A stretch of DNA of 62,699 nucleotides, filler included, from Globobulimina sp. (Eukaryota), in the NCBI GenBank assembly GCA_003354225.1. It is 27 parts of 27 records of this genome, joined end to end, with 100 filler letters (N's around TTAATTAATTAA, not from the genome) between each part and the next. Parts side by side here need not be neighbours in the genome. Positions count along the whole stretch, not along the records: positions 1 to 2,228 come from PIVH01008044.1; 26 more parts are not named here. One strand, 5' to 3'. A program made the translations under genes and the position numbers. Positions 1,202 to 60,375 of the stretch are shown piece by piece. The notes beneath the pieces are model-generated. The model searched no databases. It had not been told where the DNA came from and was given only the letters and a program-made list of their open reading frames with translations. How positions within the stretch are numbered: position 1 is the first letter of the stretch; every line of letters begins with the position of its first letter.

Positions 1202-2228
1202 TTGGCAATCGCAGCATTTAGACAGGCATATGGAACGTCGAAATATAAGCAATCAAAATTATTAATAAATAGTGCAATTTGGTATGTAGAGATACTGCCA
1301 TTTGTGGAGCAACATAGTGATGACAATTATTATGTGCTGTCACAAGCAATGCATCACCATCTAAAATTTGGATGGCAATTAGGAATAACGAATACGAAGA
1401 ATGTTAAATTAAATCAGGAGACATATGCAGATGATGCAGGAGGGAGAGTTGCGAGATTGGCGATTGCCAAAGAATTGACAAATGATATGTGCAGAGGGAA
1501 GATTGTTGGCTGGATGGCGGAATTAAATGGTTTTGTTCCATTATTTGTGAGGCCCAAAGAGATTGATCCCATCACAGGGGATATCTTACAATGGCGTGTA
1601 ATCAGAGATGGCACGTTTGGATCAGAACGTTTTCCATCAATAAATATGTTAACTGGTGATGATAAAGCCAGAATTAAATTGTTCCATGTCAGAGAATTAA
1701 TAAATTACTGCTATGTGTTCTATTTATTATGGGGCAAAGGATTTTATTTAGCAAAGACTGACTTAACGTGGGCGTTCAGACAGCTTCCTTTGGCAGTAAC
1801 GGAACTTAAAAACTGTGGCTATCGCTTTGATGGCAAAATATTGGTGGATTGCTATGACTTTTGGGGAACCAGAACAGGTTCAAAACACACACAAGATGTT
1901 GGCCAATTGGTGTGTAGATATTTTAATATTAAAATCAATGGTATACAGTTATTGAATGATCTAAATATGATATTGGAGAAAAATAATGTGGTGTATTTTT
2001 ATAAGAAATTTATTAATGAGTTAAATAATGAGAATATAATGAATTTTGATTATATTTATGAAAATAAACTGGTTTATAAATGGAATAGTGATTTGGTGGA
2101 GAGATGGTGTGATCAGAATGGTTTATTTAATGTAAAAAATATAATTTTAAAACATTGCTATAATGGCTTAAAATTGATGGCAGCAAACAGTGATATGTTG
2201 AATGTGAATATGGCATTTAATGAGTTTC
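1202..2228 (+). CDS. Reverse transcriptase, DIRS/Ngaro-like, truncated at contig end, with SAM-like segment at ~2072-2228
   Basis: PLFVRPK..WRVIRD..SIN; motif A region KTDLTWAFRQLP; motif B region FWGTRTGS. No YxDD before the contig end. Confidence 0.8.
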
Positions 2229-32575: not shown

Positions 32576-33818
32576 ACCGCCAAAAAGAAGAAAAAAGACA
32601 ACGAGAAGAAAAAGAAAAAGAAGAAAGGCAAGAAAGGCAGCAAAGGTTCGTCCGCCGACGAGGAAAAAAAAGAAAACAAAAAGAAATCAAAACTCTCCAA
32701 ACAAGGCATGCTTTTTTTTATTTTTCCCGCCTTCAATGTCCGATGAAACCCAAACATGAACAGACGAGGAGTTCCGGTCCAGGTTGGAGGCAGATATTAT
32801 ATCGGAAGCGCCGGACATTTGTTTCAAGGACGTGCAGGGTTTAGCCAATGTGAAATTGGCCTTATATGAGACCATCATATTACCCGCAATGCGGCCGGAA
32901 TTGTTCACCGGTCTGCGGACCCCGACTGGCGGCTTGTTACTGTTCGGGCCGCCCGGAAACGGCAAGACTATGATCGCAAAGTGCGTGGCAGCCGGCTGCG
33001 GCTCTACTTTTTTCAGCATCTCTGCGTCGTCCATCACGTCCAAATTCGTGGGCGATGCGGAGCGAATAATGCGTTCATTGTTCGATTTGGCTCGCGAGAA
33101 GTCGCCGAGCATCATCTTTATCGACGAGATTGACAGTATGTTGACGGCGCGCGGCGGTAAGAACGAGGCGGAGTCGTCGCGGAGGATCAAGACGGAGTTT
33201 CTGATCCAGTTCGATGGCGTGAAGAAGGCGTCGGATTCGGCCAAACGAGTGCTGGTGATCGGTGCGACCAATTTGCCCGCTCAGTTGGATGAGGCCGTGT
33301 TGCGCAGATTTGGCAAACGGATAATGGTTCCTTTGCCGGATAGCGACACTCGGAGAGGCATATTGCGACTGTTGATGAGCAAACAAAAGACAGTGTTGGC
33401 GGATGAGGATTACGATGCCATTGTGTCTGGCTGCGACGGTTATTCCTGCAGCGATTTGTCCACTTTGTGTAAGGATGCGGCCATGGGACCCATTCGCAGT
33501 TTGGGGGCCAAGATATTGGAGATCAAGAACCAAGCGGATATGCCTGCGATTAAGAAGTGCCATTTCGACGAGTCGTTGCTAAATGTGCGCCCCTCGTTGA
33601 CTCAGGGCAGTTTGAATTATTTTAAGGAATGGAATGATAAGTTTGGGTCCAAGATACATCTGAGTTTGAGCGCGTTGCCGGAGGATATGAGGCCGTATAC
33701 GCTGGAGCAATTGCGCGAAATTGAGAGGAAGCGCGAAGAACAGGAGTTGGCGGATAAAGCGGCACAGGAAGCGGCTGAGAAAGCTGAGCAGGAATCGAGT
33801 GATGAAGATAGTGATTAA
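32576..33818 (+). CDS. SPAST: Spastin-like microtubule-severing AAA ATPase (5' truncated; intron ending 32763)
   Basis: LRTPTGGLLLFGPPGNGKTMIAK, ISASSITSKFVG, IFIDEIDS, SRRIKTEFLIQFDG, GATN..LDEAVLRRF, WNDKFGS. Confidence 0.9.
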
Positions 33819-34160
33819 ATGACCTTTTCTCTTTCGAATATCATTTTGCGTTCTTTTGCATATATATCATTATATTTTCTGATATTGTTTTGCTATGCAG
33901 TGTAGATCAATTGTTGCGTTTTTTTTTGTCTGTTTTTCGATGGCGATATGTTATGTAATTAATACTTTGTTAATTGTGTTATTTTCCTTATGAATGTTTT
34001 TTTCTTTTTATAGATCACTTATTTTATTTTCTATTTGTTTTACTTGCGTTATTTCTCATTATCATTCACCATTTTTTTTATACATACTAGTGACTGCAAA
34101 TATTTTTTTAGGTATTTGTGAATATTTATTATATTAAAATATGCACCGCAATGATTATGC

Positions 34161-34356
34161 AATTGACTTTTTAGGCTTAAACTTCTAAACACTTCTTTTG
34201 TGATTGGCAAGGTTTTTGGGTTAGCTAGAGTGGTTTTCAACTTTGAATACTATGATTCGAAACCTAGGTCAACTTCGAATACTAGGTTGTAGCTAGCCCA
34301 AAAACCTTGCCAATCACAAAAGAAGTGTTTAGAAGTTTAAGCCTAAAAAGTCAATT
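34161..34356. mobile_element. Palindromic MITE-like element, family A, full copy
   Basis: 60-bp perfect inverted arms (34161-34220/34297-34356); near-identical sequence at 46263-46426 on another contig. Confidence 0.85.
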
Positions 34357-34363
34357 ATCCCTA

Positions 34364-34801
34364 ATGACCAAATCTTATATTTTCCAACTTTCAAATGAAA
34401 GTTTTCACGTAAAAATGCTGAACTCCATTATTCCGTCATGGATGAAATATGGCCAAGAGCCAGACGACAAAGATAAAGAAGATGATGAGGAAAAAAAAGA
34501 AAATAGCAACGATGATTCTGGGCAAGAACCGGTTTTTGTTGCGAGTCTATCTGACTTTAATAATACTGACAGAAAAATAGTTCATATAACACAAATACTT
34601 AAAAAAAATGGAAAAAAAAATGAAAGACCAATAATTGTTTTAAAAGTGTCAAATGAATTTCATGCGTTAGATTTACGATGTTATCATGCGGGCGGCCCAT
34701 TATCAATGGGTGATATTGAGGATATTGAGGGTAATTTATGTATCAAGTGTCCATGGCATGGATATATTATCAAAATAGAAACTGGGGAGGGATTATATTA
34801 T
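34364..34801 (+). CDS. Rieske [2Fe-2S] domain protein (RFESD-like), truncated
   Basis: CYHAGGPL..GDIEDI..CIKCPWHGY..ETGEGLY. Start is uncertain (ATG at 34364 or 34416). Confidence 0.88.
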
Positions 34802-37126: not shown

Positions 37127-37424
37127 NNNNNNNNNNNNNNNNNNNNNNNNNNNNNNNNNNNNNNNNNNNNTTAATTAATTAANNNNNNNNNNNNNNNNNN
37201 NNNNNNNNNNNNNNNNNNNNNNNNNNAGCATATCTGTCCCAAATGCACTTCTTGGTTGCCCTGCCGCTATTACTTTCCCCTGCAATTCGAACTCTGCAAC
37301 ACTTTGACGAAGCTCGCCGGGAGTGTACCACATTGCAAATCCTGGAGAACTGGGTGCCCATCCTCGTGCAGCATCATCATCAGTTCGCAATCGTGCGGCA
37401 ATGTTCTCATGAGCCTTGCACCAA

Positions 37425-37995
37425 TCCTTCAATGTTTTTACGTCTCAAAAGGATTTTTGAGTAGCTCCGTCCCAGTTTATCATCATAATATTCGTACGAT
37501 TTTTTAGCCCAGTCCAGGGCAAGATCCGTATTACCCAGAACTTCGTTCGCTACTGCAATATTGAGACTGGCCCTGCCCGCCGTTTTTTGTTTATTATGAT
37601 CTGCTAATTCAATCCATATCTCGATAGCACCTTGCCAGTTAGCTACTTCGGCCCGTCGGTATCCTGCTATAAATTGATTTTTCGCCGATCCGCTGGTTCT
37701 TTTATACAAATCTCTTCTAACTACATAGAAACCTGGCAAGAATCGTTGAATGTAACTGATACCAGCTGTATAGGCAGCTTCGGGAAGTGCAGTCGGTGGA
37801 AGAACGCCTCCATTGGTATCAAAGGAGTAGTAACTGGAGTGCTGGTATTGATCAATGATCGATTTTGATCCAGGATGATACAGGCGCCAATAGCATACCA
37901 CATTCATTTTAACCTGACTGGGTAAAGTTGTTTTTGGCGAACCAGTTGAAATGATTGAAGAAACCTGTTCTGTTGCCGTCGAAAGCAACAGATCC
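37425..37995 (-). CDS. Fragment of a Bacteroidota-type TPR lipoprotein (DUF6340-like)
   Basis: YWRLYHP..IIDQ, WQGAIEIW, AGRASLNIAVANEVLG..ALDWAKKSY..Y..IL..R. Boundaries approximate; embedded in a mosaic contig. Confidence 0.65.
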
Positions 37996-38021
37996 GAGCC
38001 GCCAGAGACCAGCAATACAAA

Positions 38022-39085
38022 ATGTACGGCAACATTAGTGATATGGGACAATCCATGCAATCGTTGACCAGTGACCTTGCCGGCTTCGGTTTGCGCGACC
38101 AAATGGACGACGTAACGTCGCCACTCAACGATGCAGCAATATCGCCAGAAAATGATGTATTGCACTTAGACAATAATACAAAACAGGAATTGGAGGATTT
38201 TAAACGAATGCAAACTATGGAAGCAACTGTCGACTTAGAAGAGGATATCTACGATCCCGATAACGATGTTTACGAAGCGGATCCTCATTTATCCAACAAC
38301 AGTTTGACCGATTTAATTGCGGGACAAAGCAAACAAAAAGAAGAGGAACAAAAGGCATTGTTACTGTTAAAACAGAAGAAATTCTTCCTGATGGATGATA
38401 AGTATCTATTTGAAGAGAACAATGCGTATAACAGCAAGATCCGCGACGAACTGAATGAGTTTATACCGCTGTTGCAATGGGACAGCAATATGATTAAAAC
38501 GTGGATTAAAAGCGATTTATTCCACATTGGCATCAATGATATCATTGACGATTATTTCCCGGATTATATCAATGGATATATGCTGCTCAATTTCATACGT
38601 TATCCGTATGAGATTTGTAAAAATAATTTGCGCGAAGGTGGGTATAAATGGCCCGACAGATTTTTCAATGGCTTATGGTTGGCGAGCAAGGTATGGCCAG
38701 TCACCATTGCAACCAATCAAAAAAAAAACATGTTTTCCTGATTGGTTGCATGCAATTTTTTCAATATCATGTCATTAAAAAAAAATCTCAGGAATTCCAT
38801 ACCAAATATTTATTAGAATTGGGTATCAATATCGTAGGTGAATGTTGTGGGCAAATCGCTGCATTGAAGATAGAATCCCATCGATTGTCGCACATCTTGC
38901 AAGAGAATGATATCGTATATGACCCGCAATATAGTAAACAGTGCGTGACGCAGGAGCTAATTGCGCCGGCTTTCGAGGAGTTGTTGGCCATCGAAGACGG
39001 GAAACATCCGCGTTGGACAGACAACGACGCGAAGCAGCTCAAGAGTTTGTACTTGCGGCTGGCGAGCAAACTGGAAGCCCAATGA
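38022..39085 (+). CDS. Eukaryotic SAM-like domain protein, 2 exons (intron 38691-38791)
   Basis: AAG|GTATGG..CTCAG|GAA joins LWLASK|EFHTKY in frame; SAM-like LLQWDSNMIKTWI..YINGYMLL. Confidence 0.7.
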
Positions 39086-39117
39086 GCACATTTTGTCGCA
39101 CCTGAGTCCAAAAGTAA

Positions 39118-39451
39118 GGTTTTCTTGCTCACACCTTAGCTCAGGCTCCTACATACCACCAAGTTGCTATCTTTTTGGCACTGTCGTTTCATGCCATAAC
39201 CCGTTGGAGTGACATACACAGAGTCAAGGTGAAGGATATCCAACGTCAAGATCACACTATGACTATTCAGCTTCATAAACGCAAAACAGATCAGTTTAGG
39301 AATGGCACCACGCTATGGCTAGCGACCACCCCTACATCTGACTCACCAGCATATTTATGGGACAGCTTTGAAAGAAGATACTCCCCACAAGATCACCATT
39401 ACATCATGTGTGACCACCAGACACGGGGGTCGCGGGGATCAAAGAAGAACA
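39118..39451 (+). mobile_element. Tyrosine recombinase fragment of DIRS-retrotransposon type
   Basis: LSFHAITRWSDI..VKDI (catalytic Arg box) and IQLHKRKTDQFRNG (KTDQ catalytic Lys motif). Confidence 0.75.
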
Positions 39452-55618: not shown

Positions 55619-55973
55619 TAGAATTTATTTATATAACTTTTTGTAATTAAAATTTATTATTAATCAATAATCACCGCACATGAATTGAATTCACTTAATA
55701 TCGGATTTTTTAATAATGGTTACTTANNNNNNNNNNNNNNNNNNNNNNNNNNNNNNNNNNNNNNNNNNNNTTAATTAATTAANNNNNNNNNNNNNNNNNN
55801 NNNNNNNNNNNNNNNNNNNNNNNNNNAGATGTTTCGTATGTAAACCGCTATCGTAGTTTAAAAATCCAATCTCGGCTAGAAGTGACTGTAAAAGTGACAT
55901 GCTTTCGAATGTTTAACCTCCGAACTTAATTGGCAGTAGTCAATTTAGTAGTCGAAAACCTTAACCTTTGCAG

Positions 55974-57804
55974 ATGATGGCTCTCAACAGATATTTATGC
56001 CTCATTTGCATGTTTATATCACTTTTTACATCCACAATAAATGGGCAAGCCTCAACCTACACATGTGCAGCTGGCTCTTCTTGCATGGTCGACTGTACAA
56101 ACGTAGCCAATTTCGAATGCAATACCAAAGGCACAGGAATATCTACCATCAATGCAGTGGCCGCACGCGATTTAACTGTATTCTGTTACGAGCCCGATGC
56201 GTGCGCTCATATGTTAATAGAATGCCCAATCACCCAAAATACCGAATCATTCTGCGTCATAAATTGTGATTTAGGTAATTCATGTAACTCATTACTAGTC
56301 CATACACATAACACCACCAATGTAACCTTATTATGCGGCGCAAACGAACTCGACAGAAATACTGCCGCCGATACACAATGTACAAACATTACAATTGATG
56401 GCAATTATGGCTATAAAGGAGACAATCCGCCACCAACACAAAATATAACCATCGTTTGTAATGATGAAAATTACGAAGGCGTCGATACCCCAACTTGCAG
56501 TGATATCAGTTTAGTTGTTCCATTTCTGTACCTTCCCGTACATCATACGCAAAATCGCAAAATACTATATTTTAGAAACCCGCAACGTCGCTCAAATGGG
56601 TCCATTGATTCCAAATTCCGTGGTCACATTAAACATATTATGCACCGTAGACTGGGCCGGCGAGGAACAAACGCAAGTTTGTGACCTATTGTATATCGAT
56701 GCGGGCAAAGCAAAATACGTCAATTTGTACATCGAAGGCGATTTAACCAATTCCCACTTCAATTTGACCGACTTGGCGCTATTGGAGGTCACTATCGATT
56801 TATTGAAGTACGGCACGGTTTGGAATACGACCATCAATGCGCCGCAAGTCCAGAATAAATTTTATATAAACTCGTCGTCGATTATTGGCTTCTTAAGCAG
56901 CCATATCATTGGTCCCTATGTGCAGTACCAGACCGCCTGCGAGATTGAGACTTATTATCCGTCGCGGTTCGAGGCCTCCACCTTTGAGGGCCGCTTTTAT
57001 ATTCATGGCGATGGCTGGTATTTGGACTCTGTGTTCAATGCAAAGACCGCGGGTTATGTGGACATCCAATTGGGCGAATTGGGGGTATGGGAGCGCAATA
57101 AATTGATTATCGAAGACTCGAATGCATCGTTGGTGTTTTTTGGGCTTACCTCTGGTTATGTGGATGCCCGAAATAGTGCGCAATTGTCAGTGATTTGTAA
57201 GTCGAAGTTCCCGCAGGAATCGTGCGTCGGATTGGTGTTAGAGGTGCCGCCATATGTTATGGTGGAAAATATTAAGAAACAAAGAGCGTTTTTGGAGTGT
57301 ATAGACTATGGCTGTACGAATATTACAACCATATCAGAAAATGGTGCGGATGATATTGCGGTGACGGCGGTGTTATGCGATTGCGAGCAAGGCGGGAATG
57401 GCGAGAGTGGCAATTCGTGCATAGGGCAAATCACAATTGGATGCGGTGAGAGTGAGGCAAATGCGGTATTTGATGGAGAGCATTGTCATGGCAGCAGTGA
57501 GTGTTGCGGGCCCATCGCGGCGGAGACAACCAATGCGTTATGTAATCGAGACAGTGGTTCGAACGGATTGAATGATTGGGAGGTTGTGGGCGTTTTTATT
57601 GGGGTCTTGTTTGGTGTATTATTACTAACATCGTTGTTTTGTTATTGTACAAACCAAAGCAAGATAAGAGATCACATCAAAAGGACGCAAGCCACAAATC
57701 CGTATACTCAGACTATTGTGGAGGAGGAGCAGAAAGCGAATACGATACAAACGGCTCAAGCCGGAGCCGCTGGATATGGCTCGGTGACTGATGAGGCGGT
57801 GTGA
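55974..57804 (+). CDS. Cys-rich type I membrane protein, probable intron 56509-56575
   Basis: Signal peptide, repeated C..C modules, TM VVGVFIGVLFGVLLLTSLFCYC. Intron GTTTAG..TTTAG joins the two overlapping ORFs. Confidence 0.75.
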
Positions 57805-58151
57805 TATTATTTTATTTTTGGACTTTACTCTAATAATTTATTGTTAAGAGTTGACATGTTTTTTGTTTGTTGATAATGTTTGTTTGTTTTGATAAGTATG
57901 CACTATATAAATAAGATGACATTAAATAAATTAATTATTATGTAGACGTAGTCAATAAAATAAATTCGATACTTTTTTCATGATTTCATCTGTTACTTTT
58001 TTTTTTGAAATTAAAAGTTTTGAGGATTCAAAAAAAATCGTTTCGAAAGTANNNNNNNNNNNNNNNNNNNNNNNNNNNNNNNNNNNNNNNNNNNNTTAAT
58101 TAATTAANNNNNNNNNNNNNNNNNNNNNNNNNNNNNNNNNNNNNNNNNNNN

Positions 58152-58669: not shown

Positions 58670-58841
58670 AAAAACAATATAATAATTATTGGACATTTGT
58701 AAAGAATTGATGAGAATATATGGTATAATGCACACAAACAATGTCATGCTAATCATTAAATTGTTAATTCGATCTTGCTGTCTGATCGAGCAGATAACCA
58801 TTTTGTGCAAGCCAAAAACTTTAGCTACAGTACAATAAATC

Positions 58842-60375
58842 ATGGGCAATACTGTTGATACCAATTCAGAAAATCCACCAAAAGCACAATCACAAATACC
58901 AAACATCTCAGATGAAACACTACCTAATGATACAACACCATTATTTGAAGTAGGACAACGAGTGCAAGCTTCAGATTTGAACCGTGGTCGATGGACATGG
59001 TATAACGCAATCGTTAAAGAAGTTGATTCACAGACTAAAATGGTTAAAATTGGCTGGTTAAATGATAAATGGGCAGATTCAAAATGGGATGTTTGGATTA
59101 ACGACATCAACGCAAGAATCCGAGATCCAGACACTAAACAACCGTACGCCTACACAAGTACATATGTAGCAGCAGCAAGTCCCGCAGCACAGACAGATAA
59201 CAGTCACACAAGTGCAGCACCTAAGATATTAAACACAAGTAAAAAACCGGTGTGCGTGAATCCAGCGCATGTATCCACATGGAACACAAACACGATTATA
59301 ACATGGATCCGATCAATGCAGAAACGAATTGAATCCGCAAGCTACATACAAATAAATCCTTTGATTGCCGCTATTAAACGAAAGAAAATTACTGGGATGG
59401 AATTAATTCAATGTTCAACGCAATTACAATTTGCCGACTTATTTGAGCAAGAACCGGCTCCCGATTATTGGATATTGCGCTGCAGCTTAAATATTGAGAA
59501 AAAGGCATGGGAGCTACGCGAAACAAGTAAAGGAATGATTAAAAATGGCAGATGGACACCGAGAGTGGGCGAAAAAATAAGATGTATTGATACCAGATAT
59601 AAATCTAAATCGTATGAAGCGAGAATAAAACAGGTTGAACAGCATAGAATTTTAGTGCATTATGATGGTTATTCTGGAAATAATGATCAATGGGTTGCAA
59701 AAAAAGAATGGGTGGATAGAATTACAATAATTGAGCAACCTGATTCTGATAATCAGTCAAGAAAAGGGCCAGTACCTCCAACAAAAACATCATTGGCTGG
59801 ACCGAAATATATAGCACCATTTCGGAATAAAATTATTGCAAATTGGAGTGTGGATGATGTGGGTGACTGGGTTGATGAACTTATAATAAGTACAAGAGAT
59901 AAATCCCAAACGAAAATAAAAAAGCAGAAGAAAGCAATGAAAAATATATTGGCTGCGAATCAAATCAATGGGGCGTTATTACTTTCGTATGAGAATGGTG
60001 GCCGTCTGTATGATTTATTTGGTGATACGGGGGGAGTAAGTAAATCATTTTGCGATAAATTGTGGCAAGAATTGACGGAATTATTGAATAATCAGAAAGC
60101 ACGGTCACAACCAATATCGCAACCGTTTGTAGATGCAAAACAAAACGACATTGGATACGTTGAAAACCCACAAAAACCGATTGCAATGTTTGAAGTGGGA
60201 CAAAGAGTGGAAGCTTCGGATTGGAACCGTGGTCGATTGGATTGGTATGCCGCAATCATTAAAGACGTTAATAAAAGGAACAAAATGGTTAAAATTGGCT
60301 GGCTGAATGATAAATGGGCTCGTGAGTCATTTGATAAATGGTTTCATAGTCATGAGATTGAGAAACGAATTCGTG
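58842..60375 (+). CDS. Myristoylation-motif protein with Tudor/Agenet-like and SAM-like repeats (truncated)
   Basis: MGNT start; duplicated FEVGQRV.ASD.NRGR..WY.AI.K domain; Tudor-knot-like ILVHYDGYSGNNDQWV; two SAM-like segments (VSTWNTNTIITWI..ITGMELI; NWSVDDVGDWV..INGALLL). Confidence 0.8.

Follow-up and report, generated by a model that had tools for sequence, protein, structure and literature searches.

A reverse transcriptase with a SAM domain inserted into its palm, encoded by a fragment of a probable tyrosine-recombinase retrotransposon in a Globobulimina assembly

We analysed a 62,699-nt stretch of DNA (hereafter the window) from the Globobulimina sp. assembly GCA_003354225.1. The window is a concatenation of unlinked small contigs, and the protein considered here, a reverse transcriptase (RT) that carries a SAM domain inside its palm, is encoded in the first of them (contig 1, positions 1-2228). 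On the plus strand, where all features of contig 1 described below are located, positions 1184-2227 hold the N-terminal 348 codons of an RT-RNase H open reading frame (ORF) that is still open at the contig end. RT motif A (KTDLTWAFRQLP, 1754-1789), with the catalytic Asp D193, and RT motif B (FWGTRTGS, 1859-1882) are followed, from the end of motif B at 1882 to position 2227, by 115 in-frame residues without a YxDD, as an initial annotation of the window had described. In alignment A1, which consists of the window ORF and 13 full-length relatives, residues K191, D193, A197, F198 and R199 around motif A and W227 and G228 of motif B are invariant in all 14 sequences, and R230, G232 and S233 are nearly so. 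The motif-B helix runs from motif B to about position 1942 (helix 243-265 in the model of relative P0001). The first part of the following insert (1937-2059) comprises two helices and a variable low-complexity linker according to an insert-only alignment (A3) and the P0001 model, in which the helices span residues 267-278 and 282-289 and the low-confidence linker residues ~290-300. The remaining positions, 2060-2227, encode the first 56 of ~76 residues of the SAM domain (about four helices, by alignment to the L002 model described below), which is cut by the contig end. This part includes VYKWNSDLVERW, which begins at 2072 within the post-motif-B segment, and it carries W300, W308 and G328, the three residues of the insert that are invariant in A1.

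The G+C content (GC) drops from ~40% to 17.5-23% over positions 1921-2160, yet the reading frame stays open. At such a GC we estimate a stop frequency of ~0.1 per codon; because the frame is open across an AT-rich stretch in which stops should be common, and because it is conserved as protein in relatives, its openness is not due to chance. An AT-rich intron that happens to be read in frame was considered for this stretch and rejected, as the stretch is conserved as protein and folds confidently. When the window ORF was searched as a single sequence, nothing usable was obtained from Pfam, NCBIfam, PDB sequences or (with tblastn) phage genomes, and Pfam RVT_1 was not reached.

A HMMER search over 1.84 billion representatives returned 53 relatives at E<=0.001, 22 of them at E<=1e-30, from NCBI, ENA, Logan, EukProt and JGI sources, while a search of viral contigs gave no relative. 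The best relative, P0001 (728 aa), is 50% identical to the window ORF over query residues 3-337 (E 5.4e-96); another, P0006, is 90% identical, and full-length family members measure ~660-760 aa. All 13 full-length relatives in A1 have WGTRxGS, then ~145 aa, and then Y[IV]DD; C-terminal to it they have a conserved thumb/connection region and the RNase H motifs DGATNG, HFE, TDN and D..SR; the RT_RNaseH and RVT_3 matches of relatives lie just under or near the Pfam thresholds. The YxDD that had been called missing is thus present after the SAM domain in the family, and the window copy is without it because the contig ends at 2228, inside both the ORF and the SAM domain. In a tblastn alignment, window position 2227 corresponds to P0001 residue 354 and the YIDD of P0001 starts at residue 389, so that the motif is expected ~35 codons past the contig end.

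We then measured the spacing between the W/Y of motif B and the Y of YxDD in the 63 stored proteins. Both motifs were matched in 33 of them, the other 30 being fragments or having motifs outside the patterns used. The spacing was 114-190 residues in 24 of the 33 (near-duplicates among these being P0054/P0003, P0055/P0015, P0056/P0022 and P0058/L001) and 32-41 residues in the remaining nine, which are more distant relatives (P0027, P0037/38, P0040, P0041, P0043, P0045, P0046 and P0050). By alignment, P0047, P0049 and P0063 are also without the insert. Where present, the ~110-residue insert starts directly after the motif-B helix and stops just before the beta-strand that bears YxDD, which means that the post-motif-B segment is an insertion in the loop between the motif-B helix and the motif-C hairpin of the palm. 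The closest insert-less relatives (P0027, P0038 and P0041) had no Pfam RVT_1 match even at E<=0.01, and the escape of insert-less relatives from RVT_1 points to a wider, divergent RT lineage that is invisible to standard annotation.

The fold of the RT was assessed on P0001, the 50%-identical relative of the window fragment. Its full-length model has a predicted local distance difference test score (pLDDT) of 90.0 and a predicted template modelling score of 0.85 (28-row alignment). The helices of the insert (267-378) are modelled in blocks at pLDDT ~88-94, with the linker at ~290-300 falling to 58, and the two strands of the motif-C hairpin (385-389 and 392-397) follow the insert. A Foldseek search with this model retrieved Ty3 RT first (4ol8_A, 6e-12), then cauliflower mosaic virus (CaMV), foamy virus PR-RT, XMRV/MMLV and HIV-1/2 RT, with E-values ranging from 6e-12 to 1e-8. 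The model therefore supports the view that the SAM-bearing protein is an RT of the long terminal repeat (LTR) retroelement kind, with predicted fingers, palm and thumb followed by RNase H. Together with the conserved motifs A and B, and a recombinase ORF downstream in two relatives, this makes it an RT of the LTR-retroelement/DIRS kind, in agreement with the initial annotation.

The identity of the insert was addressed with A3, whose 21 members are two metagenomic loci (L001 and L002), the window, and parts of 18 stored proteins. The inserts have a conserved core pattern of W..V..W...L and NG..L. Against all PDB sequences, the A3 profile gave 69 matches at E<=10, and all 37 rows with E<0.01 were SAM or PNT proteins. 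The best match was liprin-beta-1 (5.3e-10); the tandem SAM of SARM1 followed at 6.5e-8 (profile 35-112 to chain 16-91), and TIR-1, DGK-delta (2.6e-5), ETV6/TEL, Shank2/3, SMS1, neurabin, aveugle, ERG/FLI1 and Scm were also matched. In a Pfam scan of the 21 single inserts at E<=1, five matched SAM_1 (best E 0.001), two SAM_PNT, and one each SAM_3 and SAM_TNK. An AlphaFold2 model of the L002 insert (L002:355-690, 112 aa, 21-row alignment) had a mean pLDDT of 80.9, exceeding 90 over residues 41-112, and forms a compact five-helix bundle (helices 46-55, 62-65, 71-75, 79-86 and 89-111). When this model was compared by VIA-align with 48,161 representative chains, 43 chains had Z>=5, headed by liprin (Z 9.0, root-mean-square deviation (rmsd) 2.4 Å over 73 residues), the Hyphen/Aveugle SAM (8.7), the CNK2 SAM (8.5) and SARM1 (8.1); the top three matches span 68-73 residues at 2.2-2.4 Å. 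By title, 46 of the 50 rows listed are SAM or PNT domains, and the other four are mitoribosomal chains. All entries listed by Foldseek were likewise SAM or SAM-containing proteins, with probabilities up to 0.99. Profile, Pfam, model and fold matches thus agree with the earlier proposal of a SAM domain between motifs B and C, and the insert contains a genuine SAM domain, which has the complete five-helix form in the family. The window fragment on its own matched only SAM_TNK in Pfam (E 0.16). A leave-one-out family profile, from which the window row was excluded, was then run on 552 window ORFs and matched window residues 252-338 with E 2.8e-16, which shows that the insert is shared by the window copy.

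We next considered the origin of the insert, which had been explained as a SAM capture by this particular element. A maximum-likelihood tree (IQ-TREE 'quick' search, LG+C20+F+G4) was built from 31 rows and 577 columns, with the insert columns removed and the root assumed at the three most distant insert-less rows. The 21 rows with SAM all group in a single clade (SH-aLRT 99), which lies nested within the set of 10 insert-less rows, and a single change accounts for the distribution of SAM on the tree. Terminal branches within the clade measure 0.3-1.4 substitutions per site and internal branches are long; the window ORF groups with P0001 (support 95). A deep clade of this kind, recovered with the insert columns left out, means that a single ancient gain introduced the domain, which was kept thereafter and was not captured by the window copy.

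Several copies under purifying selection coexist. Contigs of a public run, which holds 61% of the sampled words of contig 1, tile positions 291-2128 in pieces. Those that match exactly bridge motif B, the insert and SAM (1723-1888 and 1919-2128), and others are diverged copies. Among the listed ORF differences between 1753 and 1942, 15 of 16 fall at third codon positions, and the sixteenth (1805) forms a Leu-to-Leu change together with 1807. A further contig of the run diverges after 2124, and its first 30 letters are still in-frame related SAM sequence. Because the window may itself derive from this run, the matches give no independent support to the assembly.

Upstream of the RT ORF, positions 1-579 encode the 3' part of a gag-like ORF (192 aa and a stop) that is cut by the contig start, as judged from its motifs and its position. 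It begins within a truncated ..HWKKDC knuckle, has an R/D/Y-rich middle, and ends near a second Cys/His knuckle-like sequence, CETCGIANKHRTDDC. This ORF had no Pfam or NCBIfam match, and its Atlas scores (<=0.82) were uninformative; its shared strand and contig suggest that it belongs with the RT ORF. An AT-rich spacer of 604 nt without a long ORF (580-1183) lies between the two, and a variant Logan contig covers 952-1108 with 6 listed substitutions and 1 indel (12 other letters in all).

For the region downstream of RNase H we turned to relatives. A scan of metagenome contigs yielded the two loci L001 and L002, each with a same-strand ORF right after the RT-RNase H ORF (470 aa and 480 aa, respectively). 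These two ORFs are 33% identical (E 2.6e-71), match Phage_integrase (E 1.3e-5 and 0.0045), and share LRGAE, HGLRKGFA, AGRW and one Tyr, which we take to be the active-site Arg, His-x-x-Arg, Trp and Tyr of a tyrosine recombinase (YR). Their nearest Atlas clusters by language-model features are eukaryotic proteins with Phage_integrase (27-34% of members) and an ALOG+Phage_integrase cluster, and no rve match was present in the ORFs of either locus. L001 and L002 belong to separate subclades of the SAM-bearing clade, which makes it probable that the common ancestor of the group already had the recombinase. The pairing of RT/RNase H with a YR was found in these two loci only, the window contig ending before that region. 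In A1, the RT-RNase H ORF ends ~60-70 residues past the last RNase H motif, with no extra domain before the stop. The composite order, assembled from pieces of different copies, is therefore gag-like, RT/RNase H and YR, with no methyltransferase-like domain.

Some further features of these loci may be mentioned. In L001, the RT-RNase H and recombinase ORFs are in the same frame and are split by a single TAA (2487-2489), the first ATG of the recombinase being at 2649; in L002 the two frames differ, and a read-through signal is thus not consistent between the loci. L001 also has a tandem duplication of ~130-138 nt just upstream of its RT-RNase H ORF (1-268; 1-85/139-223 at 91% and 98-139/227-268 at 88%), which may be part of the element's terminal repeat system. 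There is no gag ORF within the 281 nt upstream in L001, and no matching 3' repeat in L001, L002 or the window contig, the contigs (2-4 kb) being too short for terminal architecture.

Taken together, contig 1 very probably represents a fragment of a tyrosine-recombinase retrotransposon (DIRS order, Ngaro-like layout) whose RT, a member of a rare eukaryotic family, has a SAM domain in its palm, a judgement that concerns identity and anatomy and not mechanism. A number of observations weigh against it. The window copy itself shows no YxDD, RNase H or recombinase, all of which are extrapolated from relatives of 27-50% identity. It also has no in-frame ATG at the start used by its relatives: a TTG (Leu) aligns with the Met of P0002 (1184-1210) and the first in-frame Met is residue 56, so this copy may be defective or expressed in another way. 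The 604-nt gap may mean that the gag-like and RT ORFs are unrelated to each other. The better Phage_integrase match stays below the Pfam gathering score (25.5 versus 27.1 bits), and a two-sequence recombinase profile retrieved no solved recombinase among the PDB sequences. The tree came from a quick search with an assumed root and contains several long branches. As to the SAM domain, no member seen reaches the Pfam SAM gathering score (P0015 16.8 and L001 14.4 bits versus a cut-off of 23), which is why the domain has been left unannotated. The best Foldseek E-value for the insert was 0.18, with none <=0.001, and the VIA-align program warns that Z below ~13 may reflect common helical arrangements. 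The doubt raised by the low Z is removed because the list of matches is homogeneous and the significance of the sequence profile is independent of it; the shortfall in Pfam is a limit of sensitivity, and profile and fold settle the SAM identity.

What the SAM domain does for the RT is a matter of inference. It could act as a protein-protein module within the palm, as SAM domains usually do, and would then either bring RT molecules together as dimers or oligomers, or tether the RT to a partner with a SAM of its own while reverse transcription or integration is under way. We tentatively favour such self-association or partner tethering because SAM domains mostly mediate homo- or heterotypic protein contacts (some bind RNA), because related RTs dimerise (Ty3 RT is a homodimer and HIV RT a p66/p51 heterodimer), and because the equivalent loop of HIV-1 RT (~175-178) presumably lies on the palm underside, near the second-subunit contact. 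The variability of the domain speaks against it: invariant residues are confined to the core, the net charge of the 21 members lies anywhere between -6 and +6 (median -1; median isoelectric point (pI) 6.0), and there is no evident conservation of an interaction surface. The weight that remains after the alternatives below goes to a purely structural role.

One of these alternatives is that the domain binds a hairpin of the element's own RNA in the manner of Smaug and Vts1, whose SAM domains bind RNA hairpins, and thereby confers template specificity or cis-preference. Its location in the palm of a polymerase that must choose its template would suit this, as would the basic SAM domains of several members (pI 9.2-10.3 in 7 of 21). 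We nevertheless regard RNA binding as unlikely, given the same spread of charge around a slightly negative median, the absence of a conserved basic surface, and best matches that are protein-binding SAM domains (liprin, SARM1, CNK/Hyphen, Scm and DGK-delta); that Vts1 and Smaug are not among the matches listed is weak evidence in the same direction. Similarly doubtful is the idea that the SAM domain recruits a host SAM protein, such as a chromatin factor, which would steer the pre-integration complex much like the chromodomains of chromoviral integrases. The best structural matches include many heterotypic SAM pairs (CNK2/Hyphen, Scm/Sfmbt, Ph/Scm and liprin alpha/beta), and a variable surface on a conserved core would suit co-evolution with different hosts; against this, there is no candidate partner, and targeting modules of retroelements are normally found on the integrase or recombinase rather than in the polymerase palm.

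Compared with self-association or tethering in general, a more specific and more speculative proposal, to which we attach a low probability, is that these elements form a deep, undescribed YR-retrotransposon lineage of marine and other microbial eukaryotes in which the RT polymerises head-to-tail via its SAM domain, as TEL and Ph do, and builds a scaffold or condensate on the template RNA. If this were true, the RT scaffold would substitute for, or organise, a capsid-like replication compartment, which would be a new way of assembling replication machinery.

It is very improbable that the family represents domestication by the host, in which the RT of a retroelement gained SAM for a cellular role. 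Strong purifying selection between copies, deep conservation, and the rarity of the family (53 representatives in 1.84 billion) would fit domestication, but one sample contains several diverged copies, P0006 is 90% identical, two distant members carry a linked recombinase ORF, the window copy is preceded by a gag-like ORF, and the catalytic residues of RT and RNase H are intact. Finally, an artefactual RT-SAM junction (an assembly chimera, an amplification chimera, as the initial annotation had feared, an unspliced in-frame AT-rich intron, or chance SAM-like helices) could appeal to the fall in GC from ~40% to 17.5-19% just after motif B and to the highly fragmented assembly, but it is already contradicted and deserves almost no credence, since the same junction and insert recur with varied sequence in 24 stored sequences from the several independent sources named above, the insert is modelled at pLDDT >88 within the full-length protein, the profile matches solved SAM domains at E-values well outside the reach of chance, and contigs of the public run overlap across 1723-2128.

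The other contigs of the window carry no information on linkage to the element. The sequence TTAATTAATTAA occurs 26 times at a spacing of ~2325-2328 nt, versus 0.06 expected by chance, and each copy is flanked by 44 N on both sides. This N44-TTAATTAATTAA-N44 unit (first at 2229-2328, without strand) is an artificial, six-frame-stop contig joiner, present as 26 identical linkers, and is not biology. Cutting at the linkers gave 27 contigs that are ordered by length, from 2228 down to 2224 nt, with a GC of 29-44%; inference from gene neighbourhood across the joints is therefore invalid. Neither a second copy nor the missing 3' part of the contig-1 element was found on the other window contigs with tblastn and blastn. 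In a Pfam search, the 47 other window ORFs of >=110 aa had mostly eukaryotic-type domains (for example HECT, RGS, JmjC, MBT, Sir2 and sugar transporter). The same search does not support the earlier remark that SAM donors are plentiful in the window: the contigs are unlinked, Pfam found no SAM domain in these 47 ORFs at E<=0.001, and two candidate ORFs had none even at E<=1. Three contigs (32576-34801, 37227-39451 and 55827-58051) have a GC of 41-44% versus ~30% in most others, and one of them encodes DUF6340, presumably a bacterial family; the assembly may thus mix organisms. At 38421-38588 (plus strand), on the contig at 37227-39451 (43.5% GC), there is a weak match to the SAM-insert profile (E 1.3e-4 among 552 ORFs). 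It falls in ORF 37959-38738, which has no Pfam SAM and partly overlaps the opposite-strand DUF6340 ORF, and it may be one of the SAM-like host segments of the initial annotation. A long ORF at 58839-60374 (plus strand) has a weak MBT-repeat match (E 3e-4) and Tudor/Agenet-like hints but no Pfam SAM; possibly it is one of those chromatin readers in which a C-terminal SAM is frequent.

We found no published description of a DIRS-order retrotransposon with an internal SAM domain in its RT. A search of full-text literature, with subscription-only papers, Repbase reports and supplements outside its scope, brought up no paper in which a SAM domain is connected with a YR-retrotransposon or with any retroelement RT, the matches being SAMHD1 or Asz1 papers, and the word 'sterile' is absent from the YR-retroelement papers PMC6681497, PMC3783388, PMC12440569 and PMC8547959. 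Between motif B and the YxDD hairpin, RTs normally have a short stretch of constant length, and here a whole cellular interaction domain occupies it. Since SAM persisted throughout a deep radiation in which the catalytic motifs stayed intact and purifying selection acted, the palm tolerates a large insertion and the insertion is useful to the element. As a natural experiment, the family lends itself to studying the part that RT oligomerisation or partner recruitment plays in the retrotransposition of DIRS-order elements, whose replication is poorly understood, and it may be of interest for the engineering of RT fusions. Because annotation based on Pfam misses both the RT and the SAM domain, such elements are probably under-counted in protist genomes.

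Among known systems, the closest in layout is Ngaro, of the DIRS order, whose ORF layout and recombinase motifs are described in PMC8547959; PMC6681497 gives a general account of YR elements. The SAM-RT family matches these in its order of gag-like ORF, RT/RNase H and tyrosine recombinase (H-x-x-R and Tyr). It also resembles Ngaro in being without an rve integrase, a protease and a methyltransferase-like domain. It differs in having SAM and two extra helices between RT motifs B and C, and in an RT whose divergence leaves RVT_1 either unmatched or far under its threshold. The split direct repeats (A1...B1A2B2) that define Ngaro are not visible on the short contigs of the SAM family, so that the likeness is one of ORF layout. 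With DIRS1-like and PAT-like elements the family shares an LTR-type RT/RNase H and a YR, and its recombinase lies near the ALOG+Phage_integrase Atlas cluster, ALOG being said to derive from DIRS1-type recombinases; unlike those elements, it has no methyltransferase-like region after RNase H. The RTs of Ty3/Metaviridae, caulimoviruses and retroviruses provide the closest solved folds to the P0001 model (4ol8_A at 6e-12, 8r0s_A, 7o0g_A and 4hkq_A) and share with it the succession of motifs A, B and C, thumb/connection and RNase H. In typical RTs, motif C follows motif B after ~30-40 residues, whereas the SAM family has ~110 extra residues there. Cellular SAM domains (SARM1/TIR-1, liprin, CNK/Hyphen, Scm/Ph, DGK-delta and TEL) resemble the insert over the whole domain by profile and in their five-helix fold, at 2.2-2.9 Å rmsd; they are terminal or separated by linkers, in contrast to the RT-family SAM, which is an internal insert in a catalytic subdomain. 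Finally, chromodomains have been captured by chromoviral integrases, and DNMT domains reportedly by dinoflagellate and charophyte retrotransposons (PMC5890265). As in these cases, a cellular regulatory domain has become fixed in a retroelement lineage, but there the domains are appended to the ends of pol domains, whereas SAM is embedded within the RT palm, which makes this a new kind of domain capture for retroelements, internal rather than terminal.

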